Source: a virus. From it: a DNA stretch of 37,536 nucleotides. This document shows, one piece after another, positions 1,650-28,497 of the stretch (position 1 is the first letter of the stretch; the number at the start of each line of letters is the position of its first letter). Where the stretch lies: positions 1 through 37,536 of IMG/VR virus record IMGVR_UViG_3300045988_062118. The stretch is one strand, 5' to 3'. The position numbers and the translations under genes were made by a program. The notes under the pieces are model-generated. The model was given only the letters and a program-made list of their open reading frames with translations. It had not been told where the DNA came from and made no database searches.

Positions 1650-2669
1650 TTACTTCTTAAACTTAGCAAGTACAACCTTTGAAGCGTTGGTGAGTGCAGC
1701 ACCATAATACTTAGATGCTGTGATATCATGTCTCTGCTTCTTCGGTAACCATTCGTGATCAACCTGAACATCTTTCTTGAGGAAAATTGTAAGAGCTGGA
1801 GCTTCCTCTTCTGTAAACTCGGTCTCATCTGAATCAGGCTGGAGCTTGATAATAGGGCAGAGATAATACTGTGAACCAGCTGCAAGGCTCTTAACCTTAT
1901 CACCGATTACAAGCTCATCTTTGCATGTTGGCTGAACTGTACTAAGATGCTTGTTTGTGTCTGACTCAGCAGTTGAATCAGCCACTATAGTAATAGTTCC
2001 CTTCTCTGTGTCTTTCTCATAAGTCATGAGCTTGATCTTCTTTGACTTCTTTACCCAGCATGATCCAATCTTACCTATAGAGCCTGTCACAATAACGCTC
2101 TTATCAAACTTGTCCGCTGACTTAAAGTTGTCATCCTTGAGAAGCGTTCCCTCCTGTTTAGGGTTTATGAACATAACCTTCTCTATTCCATCCTCTTCAT
2201 CCTCGAACTTTGTGTTAGCATCAACAATGCCATCATATCCGATTACTGCAAGAGTATCTGGTGTATATACATTCTCTGATGTGTATGCAGCATCAAGCAG
2301 ATCATTATCCAACTTGCCTACAATAGACTTTGAAAGCTGAGTCTCAGCCTGTCCAACAGGGTTCCCTAAACCACTATTGATTGCTGTCTGATATATTGAT
2401 ACGCTCTTAGCTGCACACTTAATAGTGAATGTCTTCTTTGTTGCTGTGAGCTTAGATGCCTCAATTTCATCTCCTGATTCCGGATCAAAATCCTCAGCAT
2501 CGCCGATATAATTCCATGATGGAACTGTCTTTGTATCTCCTGGTACACCCTCAAGGGATGTATCAACATGGGCATACTTTAAAAGCTTGGCCTGTGCCTC
2601 TACCTTTGCATCAATCATATCCCCCATTACTTCTGGGTTAATGAGGTCACTTACCTTTGTAATTGCCAT
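1650..2669 (-). CDS. Major capsid protein
   Basis: 339 aa, immediately after the scaffold gene, with an upstream RBS. Size and position fit an SPP1-like head module. Confidence 0.75.
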   Translation of the reverse strand: MAITKVSDLINPEVMGDMIDAKVEAQAKLLKYAHVDTSLEGVPGDTKTVPSWNYIGDAEDFDPESGDEIEASKLTATKKTFTIKCAAKSVSIYQTAINSGLGNPVGQAETQLSKSIVGKLDNDLLDAAYTSENVYTPDTLAVIGYDGIVDANTKFEDEEDGIEKVMFINPKQEGTLLKDDNFKSADKFDKSVIVTGSIGKIGSCWVKKSKKIKLMTYEKDTEKGTITIVADSTAESDTNKHLSTVQPTCKDELVIGDKVKSLAAGSQYYLCPIIKLQPDSDETEFTEEEAPALTIFLKKDVQVDHEWLPKKQRHDITASKYYGAALTNASKVVLAKFKK

Positions 2670-3525: not shown

Positions 3526-3546
3526 GAATTATCTGCTATTCCGTTT

Positions 3547-4014
3547 CTACTCCACTATTACCCAGTCTTCAGCAAGACAATCGTTTATACTCGGCACCCA
3601 CATGGAGTGTGAACCATCAACACATCTGATCTGCAGATATGGGTTACACTTGAATAAGTCACCCTCGCTGATTCCCCAGGCTTCTGCGGTCTGCTTGTTA
3701 CATGGTATGCCATCAGGATATCCCTTCTGGAATACAACAAACATTCCTTTGCCATTCCAACCCTTTCTTGCAACTCTGAAGCCCTTCTTGAGCATTTCAA
3801 GAGCAATTCCAAACGTCATGTTGTCACATGGTCTGTATGCTTCGTTAAACTGCTTCTCCGGCGACCAGCTCTCATATCCATCTGAATATCTTACGAGATA
3901 GCCTTCATCTGCTGGATTTTCTTCCGCTGGAATCTGCCATCCTTTGTAATTGTTATAGTCGCCTCTTGTCATCGGTCTTGCCTCAATCTGTTTTGTTCCA
4001 ATGTACTTCTGCAT
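3547..4014 (-). CDS. DUF2829 (Tad2-like) domain protein with extra N-terminal domain
   Basis: 155 aa. The C-terminal ~90 aa (MTFGIALEMLKKGFRVARKGWNGKGMFVV...NDCLAEDWVIVE) match the DUF2829 pattern as I remember it. AGGAGG RBS 8 nt upstream of the ATG. Confidence 0.7.
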   Translation of the reverse strand: MQKYIGTKQIEARPMTRGDYNNYKGWQIPAEENPADEGYLVRYSDGYESWSPEKQFNEAYRPCDNMTFGIALEMLKKGFRVARKGWNGKGMFVVFQKGYPDGIPCNKQTAEAWGISEGDLFKCNPYLQIRCVDGSHSMWVPSINDCLAEDWVIVE

Positions 4015-4039
4015 TCTTTCATCCTCCTATTTTTTGCAT

Positions 4040-4068
4040 AAAAAAACACCATACATCTCTGTACAGTG
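4040..4068 (-). terminator. Intrinsic terminator between the 68-aa ORF and the DUF2829 gene
   Basis: Minus strand reads CACTGTACA-GAGA-TGTATGGTG (9-bp stem including G-U pairs) followed by TTTTTTT. Confidence 0.65.
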
Positions 4069-4093
4069 CTCGTAATCCATCTAGCATTATTTT

Positions 4094-4300
4094 CTATTCT
4101 TCTCCTATGTGTCTTTTGCCGGGTTTATATAGTTCTTCTATAACTCCATTGGCTATATCTCCGCCTACGTATCCTGGACCATACAACTTGTCTAAATGAG
4201 ATAAAAATTCTGCATCACGAGGCAAAGTACCAAACTTTTCTCTTTGTTTATTATATTCTTCATACGATGTAATATTTAAAAATTCTTCTTTTAAATTCAT
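4094..4300 (-). CDS. Hypothetical 68-aa protein, candidate cognate (immunity-like) partner of the MuF C-terminal module
   Basis: Its ATG overlaps the MuF TGA (ATGA). GAGGAG RBS 8 nt upstream. It shares the AT-rich composition of the MuF C-terminal region. Confidence 0.6.
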   Translation of the reverse strand: MNLKEEFLNITSYEEYNKQREKFGTLPRDAEFLSHLDKLYGPGYVGGDIANGVIEELYKPGKRHIGEE

Positions 4301-5835
4301 TTTAAAGACTCCTCTACTAACCCGATTTCATATGTACTAAGGATTGTTTTATCTTTTTGATACACTCTGAAAAGCTCTGAGGTGGATTCCAATAAAAATT
4401 CAGTTTTTATACTTCCATCCGGATTAACAGCATCAGATATGCGGCTAACATATAACCTGCCTTGATATTCGCTAATAAATTTATCGCCATGCAAAATATA
4501 TATTGCAAATTTTTGCCCTGCATCATTTTCGTATATTTCCGTAGTAATATTTTTATCGCTTAATCCCTCAGTTAAATATTTCTTATACTTTTCCACAACT
4601 TTAGGATTCAGCATACGTTCTTCTATCAGATGTCCAAATTCATGGTCTATATCCTCTTTCTCAGCGCCTTTGGCAACGTTAATAATGCCTTTTTTCACAT
4701 CACAACTACTGCCGTTCTGCCCCATATTAAAGGTTACATCAGCCATTGCTTTCTGAACTTTATCCGGTAACTGTGAATATGCGTCAACAACAGCTTTTTC
4801 ATCTCTAATAATGCCAGCATCAGACTTTGATGCCTTGAACATTATATCTCTTATACTATCACCGTTTTGGGTATTTGCAACATCTTTTTCATGCTCAATC
4901 TCAAACGACACCTTAAAGTACTTCGTCTGGTACTCTTCAAAATCCTTTGTCTTATCCAACCCGAAGTATTCCGCTCGCTTTCTCAGAGTCTGAAGCTCTT
5001 CATCATCCAGCGCCCACCTTGCTCTCTGCAATAAGCAACAACGGCAGTTGCAGTCCTCTGCCGGATCTCCAAACATTCCAGGAGCCTTAATCTTACGACC
5101 ACCAACCTCAAAGGGCTCATCGACTTCCCGGATCTGTCCATCAAGCATCTGATGATGTTCTCTCGTTGCTCCGTCAAGAGTGGCATCCCACTGTTTCAAT
5201 ACATCTGCCCCTTTGCTTTTTGCAATATACATAGCGTCCAGCGCTGACTGTACCTGTATACGATGCCCTTCAGTCCTCGCAATGCGGATAGAGTTGTTAT
5301 AAGCCTTCTGAAATGGAGTATTTGCCATGTGTCTTGAGAGCTTACCAGCCACCTCATTCCACGTTGAGCCATTTGCAATGCCTCTTGATACCTCTGCTCT
5401 GACCGCTTTCTTGAGGTATGTCACATCCTCGCCCATTTTGTCGTAGAGCGACTTACTGAGCTTGCTGTCCGTCTGAATAGCTCTCACAACTGCCGCCTGA
5501 TCTATCGGCATGATGATTGGAATACCTGTCTTTTGCAAGTCATACATGACGCCTGTGTATCCGTCTCTGTAGCACTTCGTCAGGTAGTCAGACACAGTTG
5601 CATATGAGTTAGACTGCAGGTTACTCAGAACATCAAGCTGCGCTTTCAAAGCCTCCTGATACTGTTTCTGATAGATGATGCTCTGCAGATTCTCCATATC
5701 AGTTCGTTCTGAAAGCTCTCTTATCTTCTGCTCACAATCTCTCAATGCCCGCTGATATACCTGTTTGAGTTCTTTGATTGCCTGCTTTTCTCTATTTAGT
5801 TGTGCCTGTGCAACCTGCTTTTGTGCTTTGTTCAT
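4297..5835 (-). CDS. Minor head protein, MuF / SPP1 gp7 family, with ~200-aa C-terminal HExxH (zincin-like) extension
   Basis: 512 aa. The N-terminal ~300 aa carry the MuF/gp7 pattern (TREHHQMLDGQ...DPAEDCNCRCCL). The C-terminal extension contains HEFGH, encoded at 4630-4644. Confidence 0.75.
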   Translation of the reverse strand: MNKAQKQVAQAQLNREKQAIKELKQVYQRALRDCEQKIRELSERTDMENLQSIIYQKQYQEALKAQLDVLSNLQSNSYATVSDYLTKCYRDGYTGVMYDLQKTGIPIIMPIDQAAVVRAIQTDSKLSKSLYDKMGEDVTYLKKAVRAEVSRGIANGSTWNEVAGKLSRHMANTPFQKAYNNSIRIARTEGHRIQVQSALDAMYIAKSKGADVLKQWDATLDGATREHHQMLDGQIREVDEPFEVGGRKIKAPGMFGDPAEDCNCRCCLLQRARWALDDEELQTLRKRAEYFGLDKTKDFEEYQTKYFKVSFEIEHEKDVANTQNGDSIRDIMFKASKSDAGIIRDEKAVVDAYSQLPDKVQKAMADVTFNMGQNGSSCDVKKGIINVAKGAEKEDIDHEFGHLIEERMLNPKVVEKYKKYLTEGLSDKNITTEIYENDAGQKFAIYILHGDKFISEYQGRLYVSRISDAVNPDGSIKTEFLLESTSELFRVYQKDKTILSTYEIGLVEESLK

Positions 5836-5846
5836 CTTTTATCCCC

Positions 5847-5876
5847 CAAAAAACAAGGCTAAAATCTAACCTTGTT
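5847..5876 (-). terminator. Intrinsic terminator upstream of the MuF gene
   Basis: Minus strand reads AACAAGGTTAG-ATTT-TAGCCTTGTT followed by TTTTGGGGG. Confidence 0.55.
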
Positions 5877-5882
5877 TTATGT

Positions 5883-6374
5883 CTACTGTACGCATATATC
5901 CATTGTGAATGAATGCTTCTCGCCAGGCTGTAATGTTACCGGTTCGATAACCTCACGTGCTAACATCATTGCTCCCATAAACCCACCTGAATAGCTCGCA
6001 TATAACCCTACCTCTGATATGGTTAATGGTGCATTGCCTGTATTTCGTATAACTCTAGTGATAGTCATAATAGAGCTTGAGAATTTCAATGGCACATCTT
6101 TGGTTTGTGTGATGATTTCATAGTCCTCTGTCACATTTTCAAGCGATATATCCGCTGCTGTTGCTGGTGTTGTGCCTGTTCCCAATACGATATAAACTCC
6201 GGTTGCGGATGAGCTAGGCGCATTTTTGAGTAATAATGAGTTAGGCATTATTGATCTTAGCCAACTATAACCTCCACTGGCTGGTTTGCCGTCTGTAGTT
6301 TTACACACATTATAATTAGCTGAGCTACTTTGACAATTTAAACTGACGAGTCCAGCAAAATTATTTGTCAACAT
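5883..6374 (-). CDS. Hypothetical beta-rich protein (163 aa)
   Basis: ORF with an RBS. Ser/Thr/Gly-rich, and I recognise no motif. Its position between the portal and MuF genes is unusual. Confidence 0.55.
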   Translation of the reverse strand: MLTNNFAGLVSLNCQSSSANYNVCKTTDGKPASGGYSWLRSIMPNSLLLKNAPSSSATGVYIVLGTGTTPATAADISLENVTEDYEIITQTKDVPLKFSSSIMTITRVIRNTGNAPLTISEVGLYASYSGGFMGAMMLAREVIEPVTLQPGEKHSFTMDICVQ

Positions 6375-6390
6375 ATATATACTCCCTCCT

Positions 6391-7068
6391 TTAATCTAAT
6401 GTATTATCTATCTCATGTGTCACTCGGCACTGCACCACGCCGGATATCATTGTTGTGCTTAATATCTGTGAGTTCGATGTACCTGTCGGTATCTTTCTAA
6501 TATTCTCAGCCATCACATCCGCCGAATCTGTTGGTTCTGTAGCCACTCCTTTTTCAGTGATAGCTGTGGCTATCTTGGTATTTCTATCACTGACAGATTT
6601 TTTTACTTCTTCCATCTCCTTGTAAAGCTGTCCTGCAAGGTCTGTCATATACCGCTCTTCAATCTCACTCTCAACTACTTCACAGCCCTCAAGAACCTTC
6701 ATTCTTGTGAGCTTGGTGTTGATCTCGTTGATGATGTTACCCTCACTATCAAGCTTCTTGAAGCATACAGTGAAGCCGACATTGCCCGGCACTGTACATG
6801 CAGTAGCACCAACAAGCCAATCAAAGGTTATAATGCTTGCATCATCAGAGAGTGTATAATTCTCTATAAAATACACATCTTTCTGCTCTTCTTCATTCAC
6901 ATAGTTGATTGATATCTGATATTCAGTGAGATCTATGCCCTTATACGTTGCCGGCACTTCAAATGTCAGCCGGTTTACATCTTTGTCATGATATACACCG
7001 ATGACCTCGCCAGCCGGCATCTTCACCGTTCTTGTATCTAAATCTATCTTGTATCTTTTATTTTCCAT
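6391..7068 (-). CDS. Hypothetical structural-like protein with BppU-N/Ig-like N-terminus (225 aa)
   Basis: Start reassigned to the ATG at 7068, preceded by GGAGGTGGAG. The track's longer Arg-rich N-terminus overlaps the portal gene. The N-terminus (MENKRYKIDLDTRTVKMPAGEVIGVYHDKDVNRLTFEVP...) loosely resembles baseplate-upper-protein N-domains. Confidence 0.5.
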   Translation of the reverse strand: MENKRYKIDLDTRTVKMPAGEVIGVYHDKDVNRLTFEVPATYKGIDLTEYQISINYVNEEEQKDVYFIENYTLSDDASIITFDWLVGATACTVPGNVGFTVCFKKLDSEGNIINEINTKLTRMKVLEGCEVVESEIEERYMTDLAGQLYKEMEEVKKSVSDRNTKIATAITEKGVATEPTDSADVMAENIRKIPTGTSNSQILSTTMISGVVQCRVTHEIDNTLD

Positions 7069-8533
7069 CTGCTCCACCTCCGTTCTCGACATCTGTATTG
7101 ATGTTATCAAGCACCTTCTGAGCCTCTTCCGTGTTCTCCTCCTCATTCTTAGGCAGCTTGTCCTTGATCTCCTCATAATCAATATCAAGCCAATCACAGA
7201 TAGCTTTGATAATAGTCTCATCATTAAGTATGCTTGCAACATTAAGTATTGTATTGATCTCTGTCTGCCTTACCTGAGCCTCTGTAAGTTCTATTTGTGC
7301 ATTTTCCTGTGCATTGCTCATAATCTCATGAGCGAACTCAAAATAAACATCCTCGGCCTTATATGCCTTGTTCTCAGCCTTGTTGATCTCGTCAATGACA
7401 ATCTCTACTATCCTCCTCAAGAACTTTCTAAGAGCTTTCTCTATCTTTTTTGCCTTAAGGTCAAGCAATGAGTAGGCCGCCTTAATGGCTATATTCGTAG
7501 TTGCTGATGTGTCCTTGAGTCCGGCGGTATTCAGCCCCATGCCAAACCTGTATATATTCTTTTCATCAAGCTCCAGCTTAGCCTGCCTTGCCTGGTATGG
7601 GACGTCAACAGTCTTGACATCTACGTCACCATCCTCACCTATACCTATGATCTTCTTTGTTTTGAGGTTTGTCTGAAGCTCATTCAGGTTGTCTCCCTGA
7701 AAGCCTTTGATAGCATATAGTGGGGAATCAAAGTCTATGAGGTTGTTTGACAGGCTTGAGGCCATCAGGTCATAGTCATCTATGAGTGGCTTTACAGGCT
7801 TAAGGCTTGAGAACTGCTTCTTGTTGTTATCCAGCCGGAAGAATGGAATATAGCCAAATCCATCAAAGTAGGTGGCCTTATCTCCATTACTCTTTGTATA
7901 AAGTACATGAGGCTTTGGGTTGATTGGTTCAGTATCGTCTAACACCACCGCCCCATTATTAACCTGAACATAATAATATGTTTGCTTATCATCCCAGACC
8001 TGTATTCTCTCAATAGTCTTGTGCCCTTTGTCTATCCTGTCCGTATAGTGGTAAATCGTGTATGCACAGCCATCATCTGTGTCCTTAGCTCTTACCTCAA
8101 TAACTCCGATACTGTCAGCATTTGCAAATGACATCATGTCCTTGGCATTCTTGTACGCGTACATATACGCAAAGCCTTTGACCTGCATATCTGTGATAGC
8201 GTCAGAAAGCTCAGACATGAACTCATCATTGTTGTTAAAATACTTGTCCATGTGTTTCTGCAGCTCAGGGTCGTTGGACTTTACAATGCCATCCCCTGAT
8301 AGGATGTACTGGGTGCACTGGTCAACCAGCTCTGTGAAGAATGGATGTGGTATCTTAACGTTGCTTCTGGTCTTGTCCTCTACCAGTTCGCCGTCCGCAT
8401 TGTAATAGAACAATCTATACTTCTTTATGTCATGATCGCCGTCATAGTATCTTTCGCCTGTCCGGGCGAACTGCTTTTTTTCTGATGTGCGGTCACTGTC
8501 TATCAATTCTTTTATCTCGTCAGGGGTTAGCAT
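7058..8533 (-). CDS. Portal protein, SPP1 gp6-like
   Basis: 491 aa, directly downstream of TerL. The N-terminal pattern (ERYYDGDHDI...) and size fit SPP1-type portals. Confidence 0.85.
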   Translation of the reverse strand: MLTPDEIKELIDSDRTSEKKQFARTGERYYDGDHDIKKYRLFYYNADGELVEDKTRSNVKIPHPFFTELVDQCTQYILSGDGIVKSNDPELQKHMDKYFNNNDEFMSELSDAITDMQVKGFAYMYAYKNAKDMMSFANADSIGVIEVRAKDTDDGCAYTIYHYTDRIDKGHKTIERIQVWDDKQTYYYVQVNNGAVVLDDTEPINPKPHVLYTKSNGDKATYFDGFGYIPFFRLDNNKKQFSSLKPVKPLIDDYDLMASSLSNNLIDFDSPLYAIKGFQGDNLNELQTNLKTKKIIGIGEDGDVDVKTVDVPYQARQAKLELDEKNIYRFGMGLNTAGLKDTSATTNIAIKAAYSLLDLKAKKIEKALRKFLRRIVEIVIDEINKAENKAYKAEDVYFEFAHEIMSNAQENAQIELTEAQVRQTEINTILNVASILNDETIIKAICDWLDIDYEEIKDKLPKNEEENTEEAQKVLDNINTDVENGGGADGK

Positions 8534-23198: not shown

Positions 23199-23213
23199 CC
23201 ATTTTAATTGGAT
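23199..23213. promoter_or_regulatory. Operator-like motif copy 3 (CCATTTTAATTGGAT)
   Basis: Exact copy of the motif in the switch region, located at the cro stop / next-gene junction. Confidence 0.5.
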
Positions 23214-23422
23214 TCAGATGGCAAAAAAATATAGTCTAACGGCATATCATACAGTCTTGACAATTCCTTAGCCTGTGAGATTTTAGGTTCTGATGTACCT
23301 TTTTCCCAACTAACAATAGTCTGCTTACCTACTGCCATATGTTTTGCTACTTCTTCCTGTGTCATTCCTGCATTTACTCTTGCTGCCGCTAAACTAATCT
23401 GGATCTTTTTCTGTGTTTTCAA
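23204..23422 (-). CDS. Cro-like XRE-family HTH regulator
   Basis: HTH segment MTQEEVAKHMAVGKQTIVSWEKG. Divergent from the CI-like gene. Probable TTG start at 23422 after AGGAAGTGAG; the track uses the GTG at 23434. Confidence 0.75.
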   Translation of the reverse strand: MKTQKKIQISLAAARVNAGMTQEEVAKHMAVGKQTIVSWEKGTSEPKISQAKELSRLYDMPLDYIFLPSESN

Positions 23423-23456
23423 TTTTGCTCTCACTTCCTTTCTGTATCATGTTCAC

Positions 23457-23485
23457 ATTGTATATCCATTTTAATTGGATGTCAA
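23457..23485 (-). promoter_or_regulatory. Early lytic promoter (TTGACA-17-TACAAT) with an operator in the spacer
   Basis: Minus strand: TTGACA (23485-23480), a 17-nt spacer containing ATCCAATTAAAATGG, and TACAAT (23462-23457). Confidence 0.7.
23466..23480. promoter_or_regulatory. Operator-like motif copy 1 (CCATTTTAATTGGAT, imperfect palindrome)
   Basis: Lies between the -35 and -10 of the lytic promoter. Confidence 0.6.
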
Positions 23486-23494
23486 TACCAAAAT

Positions 23495-23509
23495 TCATTT
23501 TAATTGAAC
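23495..23509. promoter_or_regulatory. Operator-like motif copy 2 (TCATTTTAATTGAAC)
   Basis: Variant copy between the two divergent promoters. Confidence 0.5.
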
Positions 23510-23515
23510 TTTTTG

Positions 23516-23547
23516 TTGTCAATTATTCAATATTGTTGTATTATAAT
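23516..23547 (+). promoter_or_regulatory. Candidate repressor (lysogenic) promoter
   Basis: TTGTCA (23516-23521), 17 nt, then TATTAT (23539-23544), which overlaps TATAAT (23542-23547). Confidence 0.5.
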
Positions 23548-23575
23548 AATAAGTTTTAAAAGGGGGGTGCACCTT

Positions 23576-23959
23576 ATGCCAGACGATAAACAAAAAGAAG
23601 TGTTTGCAAGAAATTTAAATAAATATTTAGAAAGAAGTGGAAAAACCCAAAAAGAGGTTGCTCAGGCAATTGGAGTTATTCCTACTACATTTAATACTTG
23701 GTGCTTGGCACAAGCTCTACCTAGAATGGGCAAGGTCCAACTTCTTGCTGACTATTTTGGTATAAACAAATCAGATCTTATCGAGGATAACTCGGATACT
23801 GAGTATTATTTAGACGCTGAGACCGCAAAGAAAGCACAAGAGATATTCGAGAACAAGCAGCTCTCTCTTCTCTTCGATGCTGCCAGAGATGCCGATCCAG
23901 AGGATTTAGAGACTGTCCATACTATGTTAATGGCTCTCAAGAATAAAGAGAAACGATAA
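23576..23959 (+). CDS. CI-like XRE-family repressor without a peptidase S24 domain
   Basis: HTH segment KTQKEVAQAIGVIPTTFNTWC. I prefer the ATG at 23576, after AAAGGGGGGTG. The track's 24-aa hydrophobic extension is rejected. Confidence 0.8.
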   Translation: MPDDKQKEVFARNLNKYLERSGKTQKEVAQAIGVIPTTFNTWCLAQALPRMGKVQLLADYFGINKSDLIEDNSDTEYYLDAETAKKAQEIFENKQLSLLFDAARDADPEDLETVHTMLMALKNKEKR

Positions 23960-24007
23960 TGCACATAAAACATCCCATGGATTTTGTTATTGTTTTTCTG
24001 ATTACAT

Positions 24008-24253
24008 TTGAAAGGGATGATTTCTTTGGAATATATAAACGTACAGATGATGGATTTAAAATCTACCAAGATTAAAGAAACCGTGACCAGTAACGAAGAT
24101 GGCTCTTACACTATCTTCCTCAATTCACGATTCACTCAGGAACAACTCAATGACGCTTATATCCACGCTATCGGACACATAGACAGGGACGACTTCAACA
24201 AAGGCTCTGCCGATGTTATTGAGGCTTATGCGCATGGGCTAACTGAATTGTAA
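24008..24253 (+). CDS. ImmA/IrrE-like small protein with a degenerate metal motif (HAIGH instead of HExxH)
   Basis: YTIFLNSRFTQEQLNDAYIHAIGHIDRDDF resembles the short ImmA-like family found next to XRE repressors. The start is uncertain: TTG at 24008, or ATG at 24017 or 24047, all with poor RBSs. Confidence 0.45.
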   Translation: MKGMISLEYINVQMMDLKSTKIKETVTSNEDGSYTIFLNSRFTQEQLNDAYIHAIGHIDRDDFNKGSADVIEAYAHGLTEL

Positions 24254-24333
24254 ATTGGTAAAAACGCATTATCAAGGTCGTGGAACTAAGGGCCAAATTT
24301 TAATAACACCATATATTATGGATAGGATTTTAT

Positions 24334-24555
24334 ATGAGAAAATTTATATTTGAGCATTTGATAACCAATGGTGAGGAAAAATTATTTGATACCGAGGAAT
24401 CTTCTATTGAATATGCGATGATCAAACACTCTAATGAACCTGGAGATATGGTGGTTGTAGAGGTAGACATCACCGAAAAGCAATTACGCGACTACCTTAA
24501 TGAACACATTGAAATTCCCTGCACCGCATGGCGCAGGGATGTTTGGAAGTCTTAA
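24334..24555 (+). CDS. Hypothetical protein (73 aa)
   Basis: ORF with an AGGA RBS on the lysogeny strand. Confidence 0.5.
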   Translation: MRKFIFEHLITNGEEKLFDTEESSIEYAMIKHSNEPGDMVVVEVDITEKQLRDYLNEHIEIPCTAWRRDVWKS

Positions 24556-24635
24556 TCTACTTGTTAACATTGTTATCGCCATGGTGAATGGCTATGATGC
24601 TACTTGTAAACGTCTTATCAAGTATGCTACAAGTA

Positions 24636-24664
24636 TTGCTCTCGTCTCACTGAATAGTTAATAT
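24636..24664 (+). promoter_or_regulatory. Candidate promoter of the accessory operon (TTGCTC-17-TAATAT)
   Basis: Hexamers at 24636-24641 and 24659-24664 with a 17-nt spacer. Confidence 0.35.
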
Positions 24665-24776
24665 GAGCCTATGATGTTCACTATTAAGGAAGTAGACACT
24701 AAGACAGTGAGGATAATAGGTAAAGTTGTTGAATTGAGAGGTAAGTTTTAAACTACACATAAGGGGAGGAATTACA

Positions 24777-25298
24777 ATGTCACTATTTGGACCATCAAAA
24801 AAGGAACTACTTGAATGGCAAACATTTGTTACTGGGAAACCATCAAGCAAACTACTAATGAATAAAGCTCAATTAAAAACGGCAACTCAACAGATTGCTC
24901 AAGACAGCCTAAGAATATCTAACGATTGTGTCAGAATTATCTCTGAAACAATTAAGCCTGATGTATTTTTCTCAAGAATGGACTTGCTATATCATCATAC
25001 ATACAAGTTATCTGTTTGTGAGAAATATATAAAATTCTCAGGTGCATTACCATCACAGGCGTTGGCACAATTTGGACAAGATCATTTTAATGCTGTACAA
25101 GCTTTTATTAACAGATATACCCAAGCCACATACAGCAAAGCTGACACACTAAAGACAACCAAAGGGAAATTGAATCAAGCAGTAAAATTCTATGATTCAC
25201 TTGTCCCTTATTTCAATAATATAGAGCCTCAAAATATACAGATGATTGAAAACATAAAACAATCCATGCTTGCTAATTTTGGAGATCAAAAAAATTAA
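24777..25298 (+). CDS. Hypothetical protein (173 aa), first gene of the accessory operon
   Basis: Strong RBS AAGGGGAGG. Looks helical from its composition. No recognisable motif. Confidence 0.65.
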   Translation: MSLFGPSKKELLEWQTFVTGKPSSKLLMNKAQLKTATQQIAQDSLRISNDCVRIISETIKPDVFFSRMDLLYHHTYKLSVCEKYIKFSGALPSQALAQFGQDHFNAVQAFINRYTQATYSKADTLKTTKGKLNQAVKFYDSLVPYFNNIEPQNIQMIENIKQSMLANFGDQKN

Positions 25299-25351: not shown

Positions 25352-26920
25352 ATGAATCAAAAACAAGAAAACAAATGGTATTTAAGTACATGGTTCATTG
25401 CAATTTTATGCGCATGCTGGTTTCTTATACTTCCGGCAATCGGTGGCATAGTATTGATGATAATGAAGACCATGGACGAAAAGAAACAAAAGGAAGCCAA
25501 TCAACAAATTATTCAACAGAATGCCCAACTTGTGGCTCAGAATGTTCAGATGAATCAAGCAATGCAAGACATGAATAAGACTATGCAAGATTTAGGGGTG
25601 CATGACCATCAGCAGTCAATGGCTAAGCTTAATCAGGTGAATGCCGAAATATCCGAAAACCTTGCCACTATAGATAAATTGCGTTCAGACATTGCTACAC
25701 TTCAGGCAAAAGATGATAAACTGCAAAAATCAGTAGCGACCCAGGAACGAAAGATCTCTCGTGCTAAGGAGATCTACAGCAGTATTGAATATGCATTAGA
25801 TAACTTCATCACTGCTGACATTCCATATAACGAATGCCGAATTAGCCAATCAGATATTGAGGATGCTAATCTCATTGCCCCATCTGTTATCCTTAAATTA
25901 CATTGTATGGATATAAAAAGCTTGCGAAAAGCATACAGAGAAAACGAGAAATCAATTGACACTCTCAGACAGCAATATGCTATCAGATACACTACTAAAG
26001 CAAACAAAACGATTTACGACCTCATTGTCAAGGGGCTGGAATCTGAGATGCAGAACGTCTTGTACAATTTAAAATATGACAAACTTGACAACGGTATTGA
26101 ACAAATAAAAGATATCTGTGCTAAGTATCTAAAGATTGCAGCTGAAGGTAATCAAACAATTGCCGGAACTCTTACTAAGTTCATAGGTGAAATGGAATAT
26201 CTTTTCATCAATGCCGCAAAGATAGAGTATAACTACTACGTCAAGAAAGAACAGGCAAAGCAAGAACAGCTTGCAATCAAAGAGCAGATGCGTCAGGAAG
26301 CAGAGGAGCGCAAGGCCCTTGAGGCCGAACGTAAAAAAGTGGAGCTTGAAGAGTCAAAATATGAGAATCAGATATCTTCCCTCAAAGAACAGGCGGAAGC
26401 TTCAGAGGGTGAAGCCCTTGCTGCTCTGCAAGCTCGTATCCTTGAACTGCAGGCTCAGCTTGCAGATGTAACAATCAAAAAGGATGAAATAGCAAAGTTG
26501 CAAAATGGTAAGGCTGGTAATGTTTATATTATCAGTAACTTGGGTTCATTTGGTGAGAATGTATTCAAAGTCGGAATGACAAGAAGAATAAATCCACAGG
26601 ATAGAGTTAATGAACTTGGAGATGCTTCTGTTCCGTTCAAATTTGATGTACACAGCTTTATTTTCTCTGATGACGCTTCTGGTCTTGAAACCGAACTTCA
26701 CAAGAGACTTAATGATCGCCGAGTAAACAAGGTAAATCTTAGAAAAGAGTTCTTTAATGTATCAATAGATGAACTTGAAGAACTTGTAAATGAGATCTGC
26801 CCTACTGCAGAGTTCAACAGAACAATGCTTGCTGAAGAATACAGACAGTCGCTGTCAAGTTCTGAAGCATATACCTCTGAATATTCAACAGAGGATGAGA
26901 CAGATGATGAGGATGAATAA
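25352..26920 (+). CDS. Membrane-anchored DUF4041 + T5orf172 (MUG113, GIY-YIG-like) domain protein
   Basis: 522 aa. N-terminal hydrophobic segment (WYLSTWFIAILCACWFLILPAIGGIVLMIM), coiled-coil stretches, and a C-terminal block (GNVYIISN..FKVGMTRR..LETELHKRL..KEFF) matching T5orf172. Acidic tail. Confidence 0.75.
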   Translation: MNQKQENKWYLSTWFIAILCACWFLILPAIGGIVLMIMKTMDEKKQKEANQQIIQQNAQLVAQNVQMNQAMQDMNKTMQDLGVHDHQQSMAKLNQVNAEISENLATIDKLRSDIATLQAKDDKLQKSVATQERKISRAKEIYSSIEYALDNFITADIPYNECRISQSDIEDANLIAPSVILKLHCMDIKSLRKAYRENEKSIDTLRQQYAIRYTTKANKTIYDLIVKGLESEMQNVLYNLKYDKLDNGIEQIKDICAKYLKIAAEGNQTIAGTLTKFIGEMEYLFINAAKIEYNYYVKKEQAKQEQLAIKEQMRQEAEERKALEAERKKVELEESKYENQISSLKEQAEASEGEALAALQARILELQAQLADVTIKKDEIAKLQNGKAGNVYIISNLGSFGENVFKVGMTRRINPQDRVNELGDASVPFKFDVHSFIFSDDASGLETELHKRLNDRRVNKVNLRKEFFNVSIDELEELVNEICPTAEFNRTMLAEEYRQSLSSSEAYTSEYSTEDETDDEDE

Positions 26921-27092: not shown

Positions 27093-28232
27093 ATGTGGTG
27101 TGAAACACAGAAGAATGGAACAGTCAAGTATTGTGAGAGGTACACAGATCCGCTCACAGAGAAGGTGAAGAAGGTCACTGTGACGATGTCTAAGGCATCA
27201 CCGCAGAACAGAAACAAGGCGGCAAGGATCCTTGCTGGGAAGATTGAGAAAGCCGAAACTTCCTCTCCTGTCCGATCAGATACAACGCTAGGGGAGCTGG
27301 CTGATGCTTATATAGCATCATTGCGGCAGTGCAAGAGGAAAGAAAGTACAATTGTTACTGAGAAATCATATATATATCGTTGTGTAAGCACAATCGGTAA
27401 TGATGTCCTCGTTGACAAACTTTCTCCCCGCTATATATATGATCAACTTCTTGCTACCGGTAAAAAAATCAGCACAATAAACGGATATATAAAATATCTG
27501 AAATTCGCTCTAAAATGGGGGGTGAAAAACGACTATCACTCAAATCATGATATACTATTAAAACTCGACTATATCAGCGAAGAGAGCTCCGACGAAATAC
27601 CAGAGGTATATGACATCAGCAATGAATATCTTGAACATGATGAGATAACAAAATTACTTAATTACTTAATAGATAATAACCACTGGCAGGACTACTATAT
27701 ATCCTATTTTCTGATTCTTACAGGCATGAGGATTGGGGAGCTTGTGGCACTTGAAGATTCAGATGTGGATATTACATCTAAAACTATTCGTGTTACCAAG
27801 ACTTACTACCCTGCAACCAAATACGCAACGTCAGCCAAAACGAGTGACTCAATCAGAAATCTTCATATACAACCTGAGCTTCTCTTGCTTATAAAGAAAC
27901 TCCGACTTTGGCGAAAAGAAGCAATGTTTGAAAATGGAATTAAAAGTACACTTTTCATGCCGCACCTCAAGACTGGCAGCTATCTGTCCTACGGAACATA
28001 TAACATACATCTTAAGATAGCATCTTTCGAGGCTATTGGCAGAGAGATAACTCCGCACAAGCTGCGGCACACACACGCATCGATTCTGGCAGAAACTATG
28101 TCAGCAGAACAGATATCCCGCCGATTGGGACATCACGATGACAAAATAACAAAAGCAATATATATTCATATCACAAAAAAAATGAAGCAAAAAGACAATG
28201 CGGCTGTCGACACAATATCAATTATCAACTAA
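27093..28232 (+). CDS. int: Tyrosine integrase
   Basis: TGMRIGEL (Arg), HKLRHTHAS (HxxR) and LGHHDDKITKAIYIH (His/Tyr). The N-terminus (MWCETQKNGTVKYCERYTDP) is typical of Firmicutes phage integrase arm-binding domains. Confidence 0.9.
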   Translation: MWCETQKNGTVKYCERYTDPLTEKVKKVTVTMSKASPQNRNKAARILAGKIEKAETSSPVRSDTTLGELADAYIASLRQCKRKESTIVTEKSYIYRCVSTIGNDVLVDKLSPRYIYDQLLATGKKISTINGYIKYLKFALKWGVKNDYHSNHDILLKLDYISEESSDEIPEVYDISNEYLEHDEITKLLNYLIDNNHWQDYYISYFLILTGMRIGELVALEDSDVDITSKTIRVTKTYYPATKYATSAKTSDSIRNLHIQPELLLLIKKLRLWRKEAMFENGIKSTLFMPHLKTGSYLSYGTYNIHLKIASFEAIGREITPHKLRHTHASILAETMSAEQISRRLGHHDDKITKAIYIHITKKMKQKDNAAVDTISIIN

Positions 28233-28236
28233 AAAA

Positions 28237-28294
28237 ATGACCACTCAGTTTTCACACTGAATGCACACTGAATGGTCATCTTTTATTTTTTTTT
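28237..28294 (+). terminator. Intrinsic terminator after int
   Basis: ATGACCACTCAGT ... ACTGAATGGTCAT (13-bp stem, one mismatch) followed by a T-rich run. Confidence 0.65.
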
Positions 28295-28314
28295 GCCCCT
28301 AAATTGCCCCTAAA
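28289..28314. repeat. 26-bp direct repeat copy 1 (TTTTTTGCCCCTAAATTGCCCCTAAA, contains 2x TTGCCCCTAAA)
   Basis: Exact match to 28498-28523. Confidence 0.95.
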
Positions 28315-28497
28315 GGCTCTCTCACAATTGTCGTACACAGCATAAACCCTTGATTCTTCTAGCTATTCATACATTATAAAATTATACATATTGTTTATTT
28401 TATAATTAATATATTGATATGTCAAAATATCTCAAAATGGCTTAAATACGTTACTTTTTGAAGATACTTCGTGTAATAACATATCATGACAAATCAA

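Follow-up and report, generated by a model that had tools for sequence, protein, structure and literature searches.

Introduction

The polymorphic toxins with a MuF domain that were described in temperate Firmicutes phages in 2017 (Jamet et al., PMC5576092) are the natural comparison for the locus analysed here, a two-gene cassette at the minor head protein gene (muf) of a viral DNA of 37,536 nucleotides (IMG/VR record IMGVR_UViG_3300045988_062118, positions 1 to 37,536; this whole stretch is called the window). According to that report, metallopeptidase domains are found in 20% of MuF polymorphic toxins and small downstream open reading frames (ORFs) in 89%, and the gut microbiome is rich in these proteins. 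Experiments on the Apk2 with IapK/Aph1 MuF toxins have shown both toxicity and cognate immunity (PMC12226406). The MuF toxins tested in the literature that we found are (p)ppApp synthetases, with no metallopeptidase type among them.

Two other groups of proteins share features with the locus. The polyvalent proteins of phages and plasmids that contain zincin-like metallopeptidase (MPTase) domains, described by Iyer et al. 2017 (PMC5512222), likewise have a HExxH helix, a downstream helix with a Glu and a variable insert between the two. They too are linked to MuF and to further proteins packaged in virions, and are distantly related to anthrax lethal factor. However, the protein in the window has two domains and is not a giant multi-domain protein, and it has an almost obligate small partner gene of a kind that is not described in Iyer et al. 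The CdiA-CT/CdiI and Rhs-CT/RhsI systems, a field reviewed in Zhang et al. 2012 (PMC3482391), resemble the locus in the replacement of C-termini at a conserved junction and in the tight coupling of an immunity gene, although here a phage capsid, and not a secretion system, would be the vehicle.

The resemblance to the toxins of Jamet et al. is the closest, and extends to an N-terminal MuF domain, a position in the head and packaging module, a variable enzymatic C-terminus, a small downstream ORF, abundance in human-gut Firmicutes, and a predicted metallopeptidase, which is among the C-terminal classes reported there. Every comparative feature of MuF polymorphic toxins is present at the locus, with the match to a toxin domain falling below threshold and occurring in relatives only. 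Unlike the recognised members, the C-terminus and the partner in the window have no Pfam or CDD-style toxin or immunity match at threshold. We conclude that the locus, a cassette on the minor head protein of a temperate siphophage of the gut bacterium Coprococcus, probably encodes a polymorphic effector of the MuF family together with its cognate immunity or inhibitor protein. The arrangement of MuF toxin and immunity gene has been described already, while the protease family and the partner family are themselves unnamed. A prior interpretation of this DNA from its letters alone (the sequence-only reading) had proposed a polymorphic toxin/immunity-like cassette, and the comparative data agree with it in revealing a MuF body with variable C-termini, a paired small ORF and orphan copies of that ORF.

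Results

An AT-rich C-terminal module on a MuF minor head protein

The two genes of the locus, and the domains and motifs of the larger protein, are as follows.

4297..5835, minus strand: muf gene for a 512-amino-acid (aa) minor head protein with a C-terminal protease module (ORF listing, Phage_Mu_F, PHROG 595).
4094..4300, minus strand: gene for the 68-aa partner, a predicted cognate inhibitor or immunity protein (ATGA overlap, GAGGAG, linkage of homologues).
4891..5835, minus strand: MuF/SPP1-gp7-type body, aa 1-315 (Pfam core at aa 144-268, corresponding to 5032-5406).
4300..4890, minus strand: predicted C-terminal zincin-like metallopeptidase domain, aa 316-512, AT-rich (base composition, family profile, AlphaFold2 model).
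4630..4644, minus strand: HEFGH, containing H398, E399 and H402, the predicted zinc-binding and catalytic motif (invariant in 108 relatives).
4450..4467, minus strand: YQGRLY motif, containing Y457, Q458 and Y462 (family conservation).
4387..4389, minus strand: E483, the predicted third zinc ligand, in the motif E-S-T-S-E-L-F of the last long helix (conservation).

The N-terminus carries the normal MuF/SPP1 gp7 minor head domain that the sequence-only reading had recognised there, with Pfam Phage_Mu_F (PF04233) matching aa 144-268 at E 1.4e-16 (61.6 bits, compared to a cut-off of 29.6). In SPP1, according to the literature (PMC5576092), gp7 is a MuF-type protein that binds the portal and of which a few copies are placed in the capsid. 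Matches to PHROG 595 and 115 are limited to the N-terminal ~370-445 aa. The first of these families is labelled 'head maturation protease', a label we rejected for this protein because the match (E 1.2e-60) covers aa 1-368, which is the MuF body, and leaves the HExxH region outside.

The last 197 aa form an AT-rich module, and the extra module of ~200 aa that had been proposed to carry HEFGH at 4630-4644 is indeed present, with the motif at residues 398-402. The by-eye impression that this module and the 68-aa ORF are richer in AT than the MuF part was also correct, since the G+C content is 0.350 in the C-terminal domain and 0.325 in the 68-aa ORF, versus 0.467 in aa 1-315. The corresponding values at third codon positions are 0.28, 0.19 and 0.51. 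The 797-bp cassette as a whole falls within the lowest 2.2% of same-size windows for G+C content.

A widespread protease-like family with invariant motif residues

Searches with the C-terminal domain alone gave no match in Pfam (E<=10), NCBIfam or the sequences of the PDB, and a word-indexed search recovered 13 relatives only. In a profile search, 185 clusters among 1.84 billion cluster representatives passed E<=1e-3, and 92 passed E<=1e-10. The members are mostly 500-600 aa long and carry the domain at the C-terminus. Among 108 members the N-terminal partner was Phage_Mu_F in 46, Phage_min_cap2 in 20, VG15 in two and a portal domain in one, so the protease domain has been joined to several kinds of virion protein.

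Conservation was assessed in an alignment of 108 relatives that share 16-47% identity. H398, E399, H402 and Q458 are invariant in this alignment, and at least 90% of the sequences keep G401, Y457, Y462 and E483. Every family member that is not a fragment has HExxH. Because the two His residues and the Glu of HEFGH are invariant among relatives this divergent, the motif is not a chance occurrence. An insert of the form SEYQGRxY is also conserved and is specific to this protease family.

The domain occurs as a separate gene at two loci. In one (L002, 5021-6836), a 212-aa protease gene overlaps the end of a 327-aa MuF-like gene in a different phage backbone, which is possibly a split by frameshift. 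In the other (L008, 1049-2606), a 157-aa stand-alone protease copy and a 68-aa partner are followed by an ADP-ribosylglycohydrolase.

A zincin-like structure model and its distant relatives

An AlphaFold2 model of the C-terminal domain based on the 108-sequence alignment reached a predicted local distance difference test score (pLDDT) of 91.2 and a predicted template modelling score of 0.85; a first run with a 7-sequence alignment had given a pLDDT of 60.8 and was discarded. The order of elements in the model is a helix, three strands, the HExxH helix, a beta-hairpin insert and a helix bearing the Glu, with HExxH within model helix 78-93 and E483 within model helix 169-183. The same zincin element order has been reported for phage MPTases (PMC5512222). 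The invariant motif and the confident model with this order of secondary structure support the earlier assignment of a zincin-type HExxH module.

Foldseek placed two kinds of protein near the model at E 1e-4 to 1e-3: uncharacterised phage proteins of large size, among which those of 1086-1207 aa are the best neighbours, and a protein labelled 'phage head morphogenesis domain'. At E ~0.04-0.05 the matches are to proteins annotated as a putative peptidase (phage PaBG), SprT-like and M34; much lower in the ranking, at E 0.75, is a protein with the label 'large polyvalent protein associated domain'. The weak matches to PDB structures (E 0.25-2) include the cores of selecase, IrrE/PprI and M1 aminopeptidases.

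When the family profile was compared with PDB sequences, anthrax lethal factor was the sole match, with a weak E of 0.52. This alignment pairs the HExxH motifs and places the E-x-x-S-E-x-F helix that contains E483 opposite EFFAEAFR. A search of PDB with the 108-sequence alignment profile returned designed helical repeats only, by way of the MuF part, and these were rejected as compositional. Among 29 relatives, Pfam matches below the cut-offs were seen to Tox-MPTase4 (5/29, best E 7.5e-4), ATLF (4/29, best E 1e-4) and Peptidase_M90 (3/29, best E 1.7e-4), whereas Pfam MPTase-PolyVal had no match in either the 29 or the 108 members scanned. The family shares with Tox-MPTase4 (PF15640) and ATLF (PF07737, MEROPS M34) the HExGH motif and the E-x-x-(S/A)-E-x-F helix, but its scores are under the curated cut-offs, the window protein itself is unmatched, and the SEYQGRxY insert is found only here. 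On the basis of sequence and model, we read the C-terminal domain as a distinct, unnamed family of putative gluzincin-type peptidases on the lethal factor and Tox-MPTase side of the clan.

A small partner gene that nearly always accompanies the protease domain

The sequence-only reading had described a 68-aa ORF that overlaps the muf stop codon and has its own ribosome-binding site. Both elements are in the sequence, with ATGA at 4297-4300 common to the stop of the 512-aa ORF and the start of the 68-aa ORF, and GAGGAG located 8 nt upstream of the ATG.

4309..4314, minus strand: GAGGAG ribosome-binding site of the 68-aa ORF, within the 3' end of muf (sequence).
4196-4198, minus strand: codon of His35 of the 68-aa ORF, invariant (family alignment).

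Homologous ORFs of 59-75 aa stand at the same position in relatives. A homologue lies next to the protease domain in viral contigs in which the domain is 47-60% identical, and directly downstream even where the identity of the domain is 26-47%. In the stand-alone pair mentioned above (L008), the protease domain and the 68-aa homologue are 41% and 42% identical to those in the window. After iteration with hidden Markov models, a homologue was found directly downstream in 22/25 GTDB genome loci (E 1e-12 to 1e-29), with two further marginal homologues at the same position (22-24/25 overall). In the reciprocal search, with the small ORF as query, 43/52 viral loci had the protease domain immediately upstream and joined to the small ORF by the same ATGA overlap of 4 nt.

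Within the small family H35 is invariant and K4, L8 and D29 are near-invariant; the proteins are hydrophilic and have a conserved N-terminal helix motif. No relative of the 68-aa ORF was found in Pfam, PHROG or PDB, and a search of Pfam and PDB with the small-ORF profile produced designed helical repeats and scattered single matches, which were rejected. The 68-aa protein constitutes a second unnamed family that is nearly always a companion of the protease family. Its variants are present on at least 1000 contigs, including Coprococcus contigs of megabase scale, while the exact 512-aa protein is present on 42.

Exchange of the cassette at a mapped junction

Recombination among related phages has exchanged these cassettes, with crossovers at 4872-4919 and ~4050. 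The junction, and the hairpins on either side of the region, are listed below.

4872..4919, minus strand: 5' recombination junction of the exchangeable cassette, at aa ~306-321, ...KYFKVSFEIEHEKDVAN| (blastn breakpoints, with which protein alignments agree).
4037..4071, minus strand: terminator-like hairpin with a T-run, which coincides with the 3' edge of the cassette (folding; similarity to L110 resumes at 4050).
5841..5877, minus strand: terminator-like hairpin with a T-run upstream of muf, which bounds the gene and not the cassette (folding).

When the MuF body by itself (aa 1-315) was used to search viral contigs, 80 loci at 65-99% identity were identified. The C-termini attached to these bodies fall into at least 12 unrelated clusters, which shows that the C-terminus is not a structural domain conserved in all MuF homologues, and the protease type of the window is the C-terminus at 19 of the 80 loci. 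One alternative C-terminus is the Pfam domain Gln_amidase (PF15644, 'papain fold toxin 1'; E 1.9e-12) and six others carry HExxH-type motifs. The second commonest alternative, present in L088 and 15 other loci (16 in all), has an HNHPGSG...S..D motif (HNHPGSGVPSLAD), which by eye looks like a JAB/JAMM metalloprotease motif; this module has no Pfam match and is accompanied by a coupled ORF of 56 aa. In total, 10/12 alternative C-termini are each accompanied by a small ORF, 56-99 aa long; these ORFs start -19 to +15 nt from the muf stop and are mutually unrelated.

The edges of the exchanged segment are visible in DNA comparisons. Similarity by blastn to seven relatives with other C-termini ends at 4919, 4919, 4919, 4913, 4909, 4883 and 4872, and in L110, which has a different C-terminus and the same Tad2 gene, it resumes at 4050. 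The exchanged unit is therefore ~4051-4919, almost exactly the interval (4094-4908) for which module exchange had been suspected. Alignment with related phages, which the sequence-only reading had put forward as a check, thus finds that the C-terminus and the downstream ORF swap together.

Hairpins at 5847-5877 (-14.7 kcal/mol, z -4.9) and 4044-4071 (-14.0 kcal/mol, z -3.6) fold better than shuffled sequence and each is followed by a T-run, in agreement with the two terminator-like structures noticed earlier around the region. The further proposal that these terminators bound the cassette is correct only for the downstream hairpin, which lies at its 3' edge. The upstream hairpin bounds the whole muf gene and is not a module boundary, because the 5' edge of the module is inside the gene at ~4872-4919.

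The next gene after the cassette (3547..4014, minus strand) encodes a Tad2-like protein implicated in Thoeris anti-defence (PF11195, E 4.8e-24; PHROG 872). A three-gene unit of C-terminal domain, 68-aa ORF and Tad2, as suggested by L001, L002 and L004, was rejected. Tad2 accompanies two different MuF C-termini, including that of L110, and most relatives are without it, in which case DNA similarity resumes at ~3535 (3531-3540). Tad2 is thus a separate and independent cassette.

Orphan partner genes and prophage remnants

Nine of the 52 loci in the reciprocal search lack the direct pairing with the protease domain. In four (L191, L193, L196, L197), a min_cap2-type MuF protein, with a C-terminus that by eye looks like an ADP-ribosyltransferase, is followed by its own ORF of 81-86 aa and then by a 71-aa homologue of the 68-aa ORF. 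In another (L207), an orphan copy of the 68-aa family stands behind a different HExxH module and a 52-aa ORF. In the remaining arrangement (L185, L187, L189, L200), a paralogous protease domain has its own ORF of 76-78 aa, and a member of the 68-aa family comes after it. Displaced immunity genes located behind a new toxin-immunity pair are a signature of polymorphic toxin loci such as those of contact-dependent inhibition (CDI) and Rhs, in which orphan arrays keep old immunity genes downstream of the new pair. However, the orphans observed here are immunity genes only, without orphan C-terminal fragments, whereas CDI and Rhs loci have displaced toxin-immunity modules.

The cassette is also found in decayed prophages. 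All that is left in four of these (L004-L007; 6001-7657 in L004) is a muf gene that is truncated at its 5' end but keeps the whole protease domain, together with the 68-aa gene and Tad2, and these remnants adjoin an integrase fragment and host MerR/TetR genes in Coprococcus-like chromosomes. The protein cluster comprises 64 sequences. L003, at the same host site, has a different MuF C-terminus with a 79-aa ORF and is without Tad2. Another remnant (L001, 6001-7374) begins exactly at the module junction.

Phage setting and other variable regions

The window is essentially a whole temperate siphophage, with genes for terminase, SPP1-type portal, MuF, scaffold and capsid, as well as a tyrosine integrase, a helix-turn-helix repressor and a GH25 lysin with CW_7 repeats. 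The muf gene is flanked by the terminase, portal, scaffold and capsid genes of the head and packaging module, and is located between portal and scaffold. Identical proteins are on record in Coprococcus eutactus and Coprococcus sp., where they are labelled 'hypothetical protein'. The closest genome match is Coprococcus aceti and the remainder are mostly Lachnospiraceae and other Clostridia, with homologues integrated in Lachnospiraceae genomes. A megablast search of the locus against GenBank phages gave no match. Two genome matches (L055, L058) come from metagenome-assembled genomes that bear the names Bacteroides thetaiotaomicron and Prevotella. Every other host belongs to the Firmicutes, and mis-binning of phage contigs is the probable explanation of these two, not a true host jump.

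Some other parts of this phage vary among relatives. Between the portal gene and muf, two minus-strand ORFs (5883..6374, 163 aa; 6391..7242, up to 283 aa) have no family match, and the stretch 5841..6590 is variable among close relatives, being collinear with L097 only. This stretch may be another moron slot inside the head module. In most close relatives an unrelated 341-aa gene (MVKTM...) takes the place of the major capsid gene (1650..2669, minus strand; 339 aa, Phage_capsid_4), and DNA similarity to L077, L088 and others breaks at ~2818 and resumes at ~1659, which suggests that the capsid gene itself is subject to mosaic exchange. In the lysogeny region, a 522-aa protein with a C-terminal T5orf172/MUG113 domain (25352..26920, plus strand) adjoins the integrase, and islands of low G+C content (down to 0.33) are found at ~23200-25200 and 27800-28450.

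Discussion

The comparative genomics make a predicted toxin and immunity function for this locus well supported. By analogy with SPP1 gp7, the MuF body (aa 1-315) would bind the portal and bring a few copies of the protein into the capsid. The C-terminal 197 aa would act as a gluzincin-type metallopeptidase, with H398, H402 and E483 as the presumed zinc ligands and E399 as the presumed general base. The 68-aa protein, whose synthesis appears to be translationally coupled to that of the peptidase, most likely binds and blocks this enzyme in the producing cell, for example if its His35 and Asp29 were to reach the zinc site. The peptidase would then enter the next cell along with the DNA and cut a target in its cytoplasm, and cells or lysogens that have the small gene, including an orphan copy, would be protected.

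A more ambitious version of this scheme seems improbable to us, although it is worth stating. The 68-aa protein might found a new family of miniature inhibitors of zinc metalloproteases, in which His35 and Asp29 plug the zinc site, and the capsid-delivered peptidase might serve as a first-strike weapon against a host defence or regulatory protein. The orphans in prophages and Coprococcus chromosomes would then form a layer of superinfection immunity against proteases borne by virions.

Several observations weigh against the interpretation of the locus as a MuF effector and immunity cassette. No toxin or peptidase model of Pfam is matched by the window protein even at E<=10, and Foldseek found nothing in PDB at E<=0.001, the best E being 0.25. 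The covalent link to MuF is not obligatory at L002 and L008, because the protease domain is a separate gene there. The pairwise identities of the protease and 68-aa families are correlated (r 0.75, Mantel p<=5e-4), but this co-divergence is weak evidence for physical contact because the linkage of adjacent genes alone predicts such a correlation. Moreover, the route of any MuF toxin to its target cell is still hypothetical (PMC5576092).

The most serious alternative, though still an unlikely one, keeps the same architecture and assigns it a counter-defence purpose: the capsid-delivered peptidase would cleave immune or regulatory proteins of the host early in infection, and the 68-aa protein would silence or chaperone it until packaging. 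In keeping with this idea, Iyer et al. (PMC5512222) describe fusions of MuF with effector enzymes whose delivery into the host cell is likely, and they report zincin MPTases, which they relate to lethal factor, as the commonest domain of phage polyvalent proteins. The best structural neighbours of the domain are also large phage proteins, the next gene encodes a Tad2-like anti-defence protein, and the stand-alone pair of L008 is followed by an ADP-ribosylglycohydrolase. However, the independence of the Tad2 cassette, found with two different C-termini and absent from most relatives, reduces the force of its proximity, and none of the members scanned matched MPTase-PolyVal. In addition, the retention of orphan copies of the small gene behind other modules argues that the incoming protease is harmful, and fits protection from such a protein better than it fits a packaging chaperone. 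Nevertheless, the present data do not separate toxicity from a counter-defence purpose.

The remaining alternatives would remove the effector altogether. A protease for head maturation or self-processing during capsid assembly, with the small ORF as an assembly factor, might be expected from the annotation of PHROG 595, from the position of the gene between portal and scaffold, and from the autoproteolytic roles proposed for some MPTases (PMC5512222), but we regard it as very unlikely. The PHROG match is to the MuF body and not to the HExxH region, and the same portal, scaffold and MuF body carry a Gln deamidase or other unrelated modules in sister phages; because non-protease domains can be swapped in, the module is dispensable for building the capsid. 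It is still less probable that the 68-aa ORF merely happens to follow muf, either as a small moron unrelated to it or without being a gene. Such an origin would agree with its very short length, its AT-richness and its lack of family or structure matches, yet homologues of 59-75 aa with an invariant His and an N-terminal helix motif occupy the same position in 22/25 genome loci, and the ATGA overlap is kept in 43/52 viral loci. Finally, the regular presence of the module in ~19 closely related contigs, and nothing further, would suit a conserved structural extension of a MuF subfamily in which HExxH is incidental. This explanation, to which we give almost no credence, is refuted by the comparative data, since the same body carries at least 12 alternative C-termini, the protease domain is found on four N-terminal types of virion-protein domain and as a stand-alone gene, and its catalytic residues are invariant.

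Read as a MuF effector and immunity cassette, the locus is a good entry point for experiments, although a specialist would hardly find it surprising. Experimental characterisation of MuF toxins is confined to the (p)ppApp-synthetase type, and to this the locus adds a well-delimited and widespread cassette of the protease type, with at least 185 clusters in the protease family and a small partner that is spread widely over gut contigs. In this Coprococcus phage lineage a single mapped junction takes at least 12 interchangeable modules, which amounts to a natural experiment on capsid-borne effectors. The lineage could reveal whether such effectors serve as toxins, as superinfection weapons or in anti-defence, and how tiny immunity proteins block a zincin.

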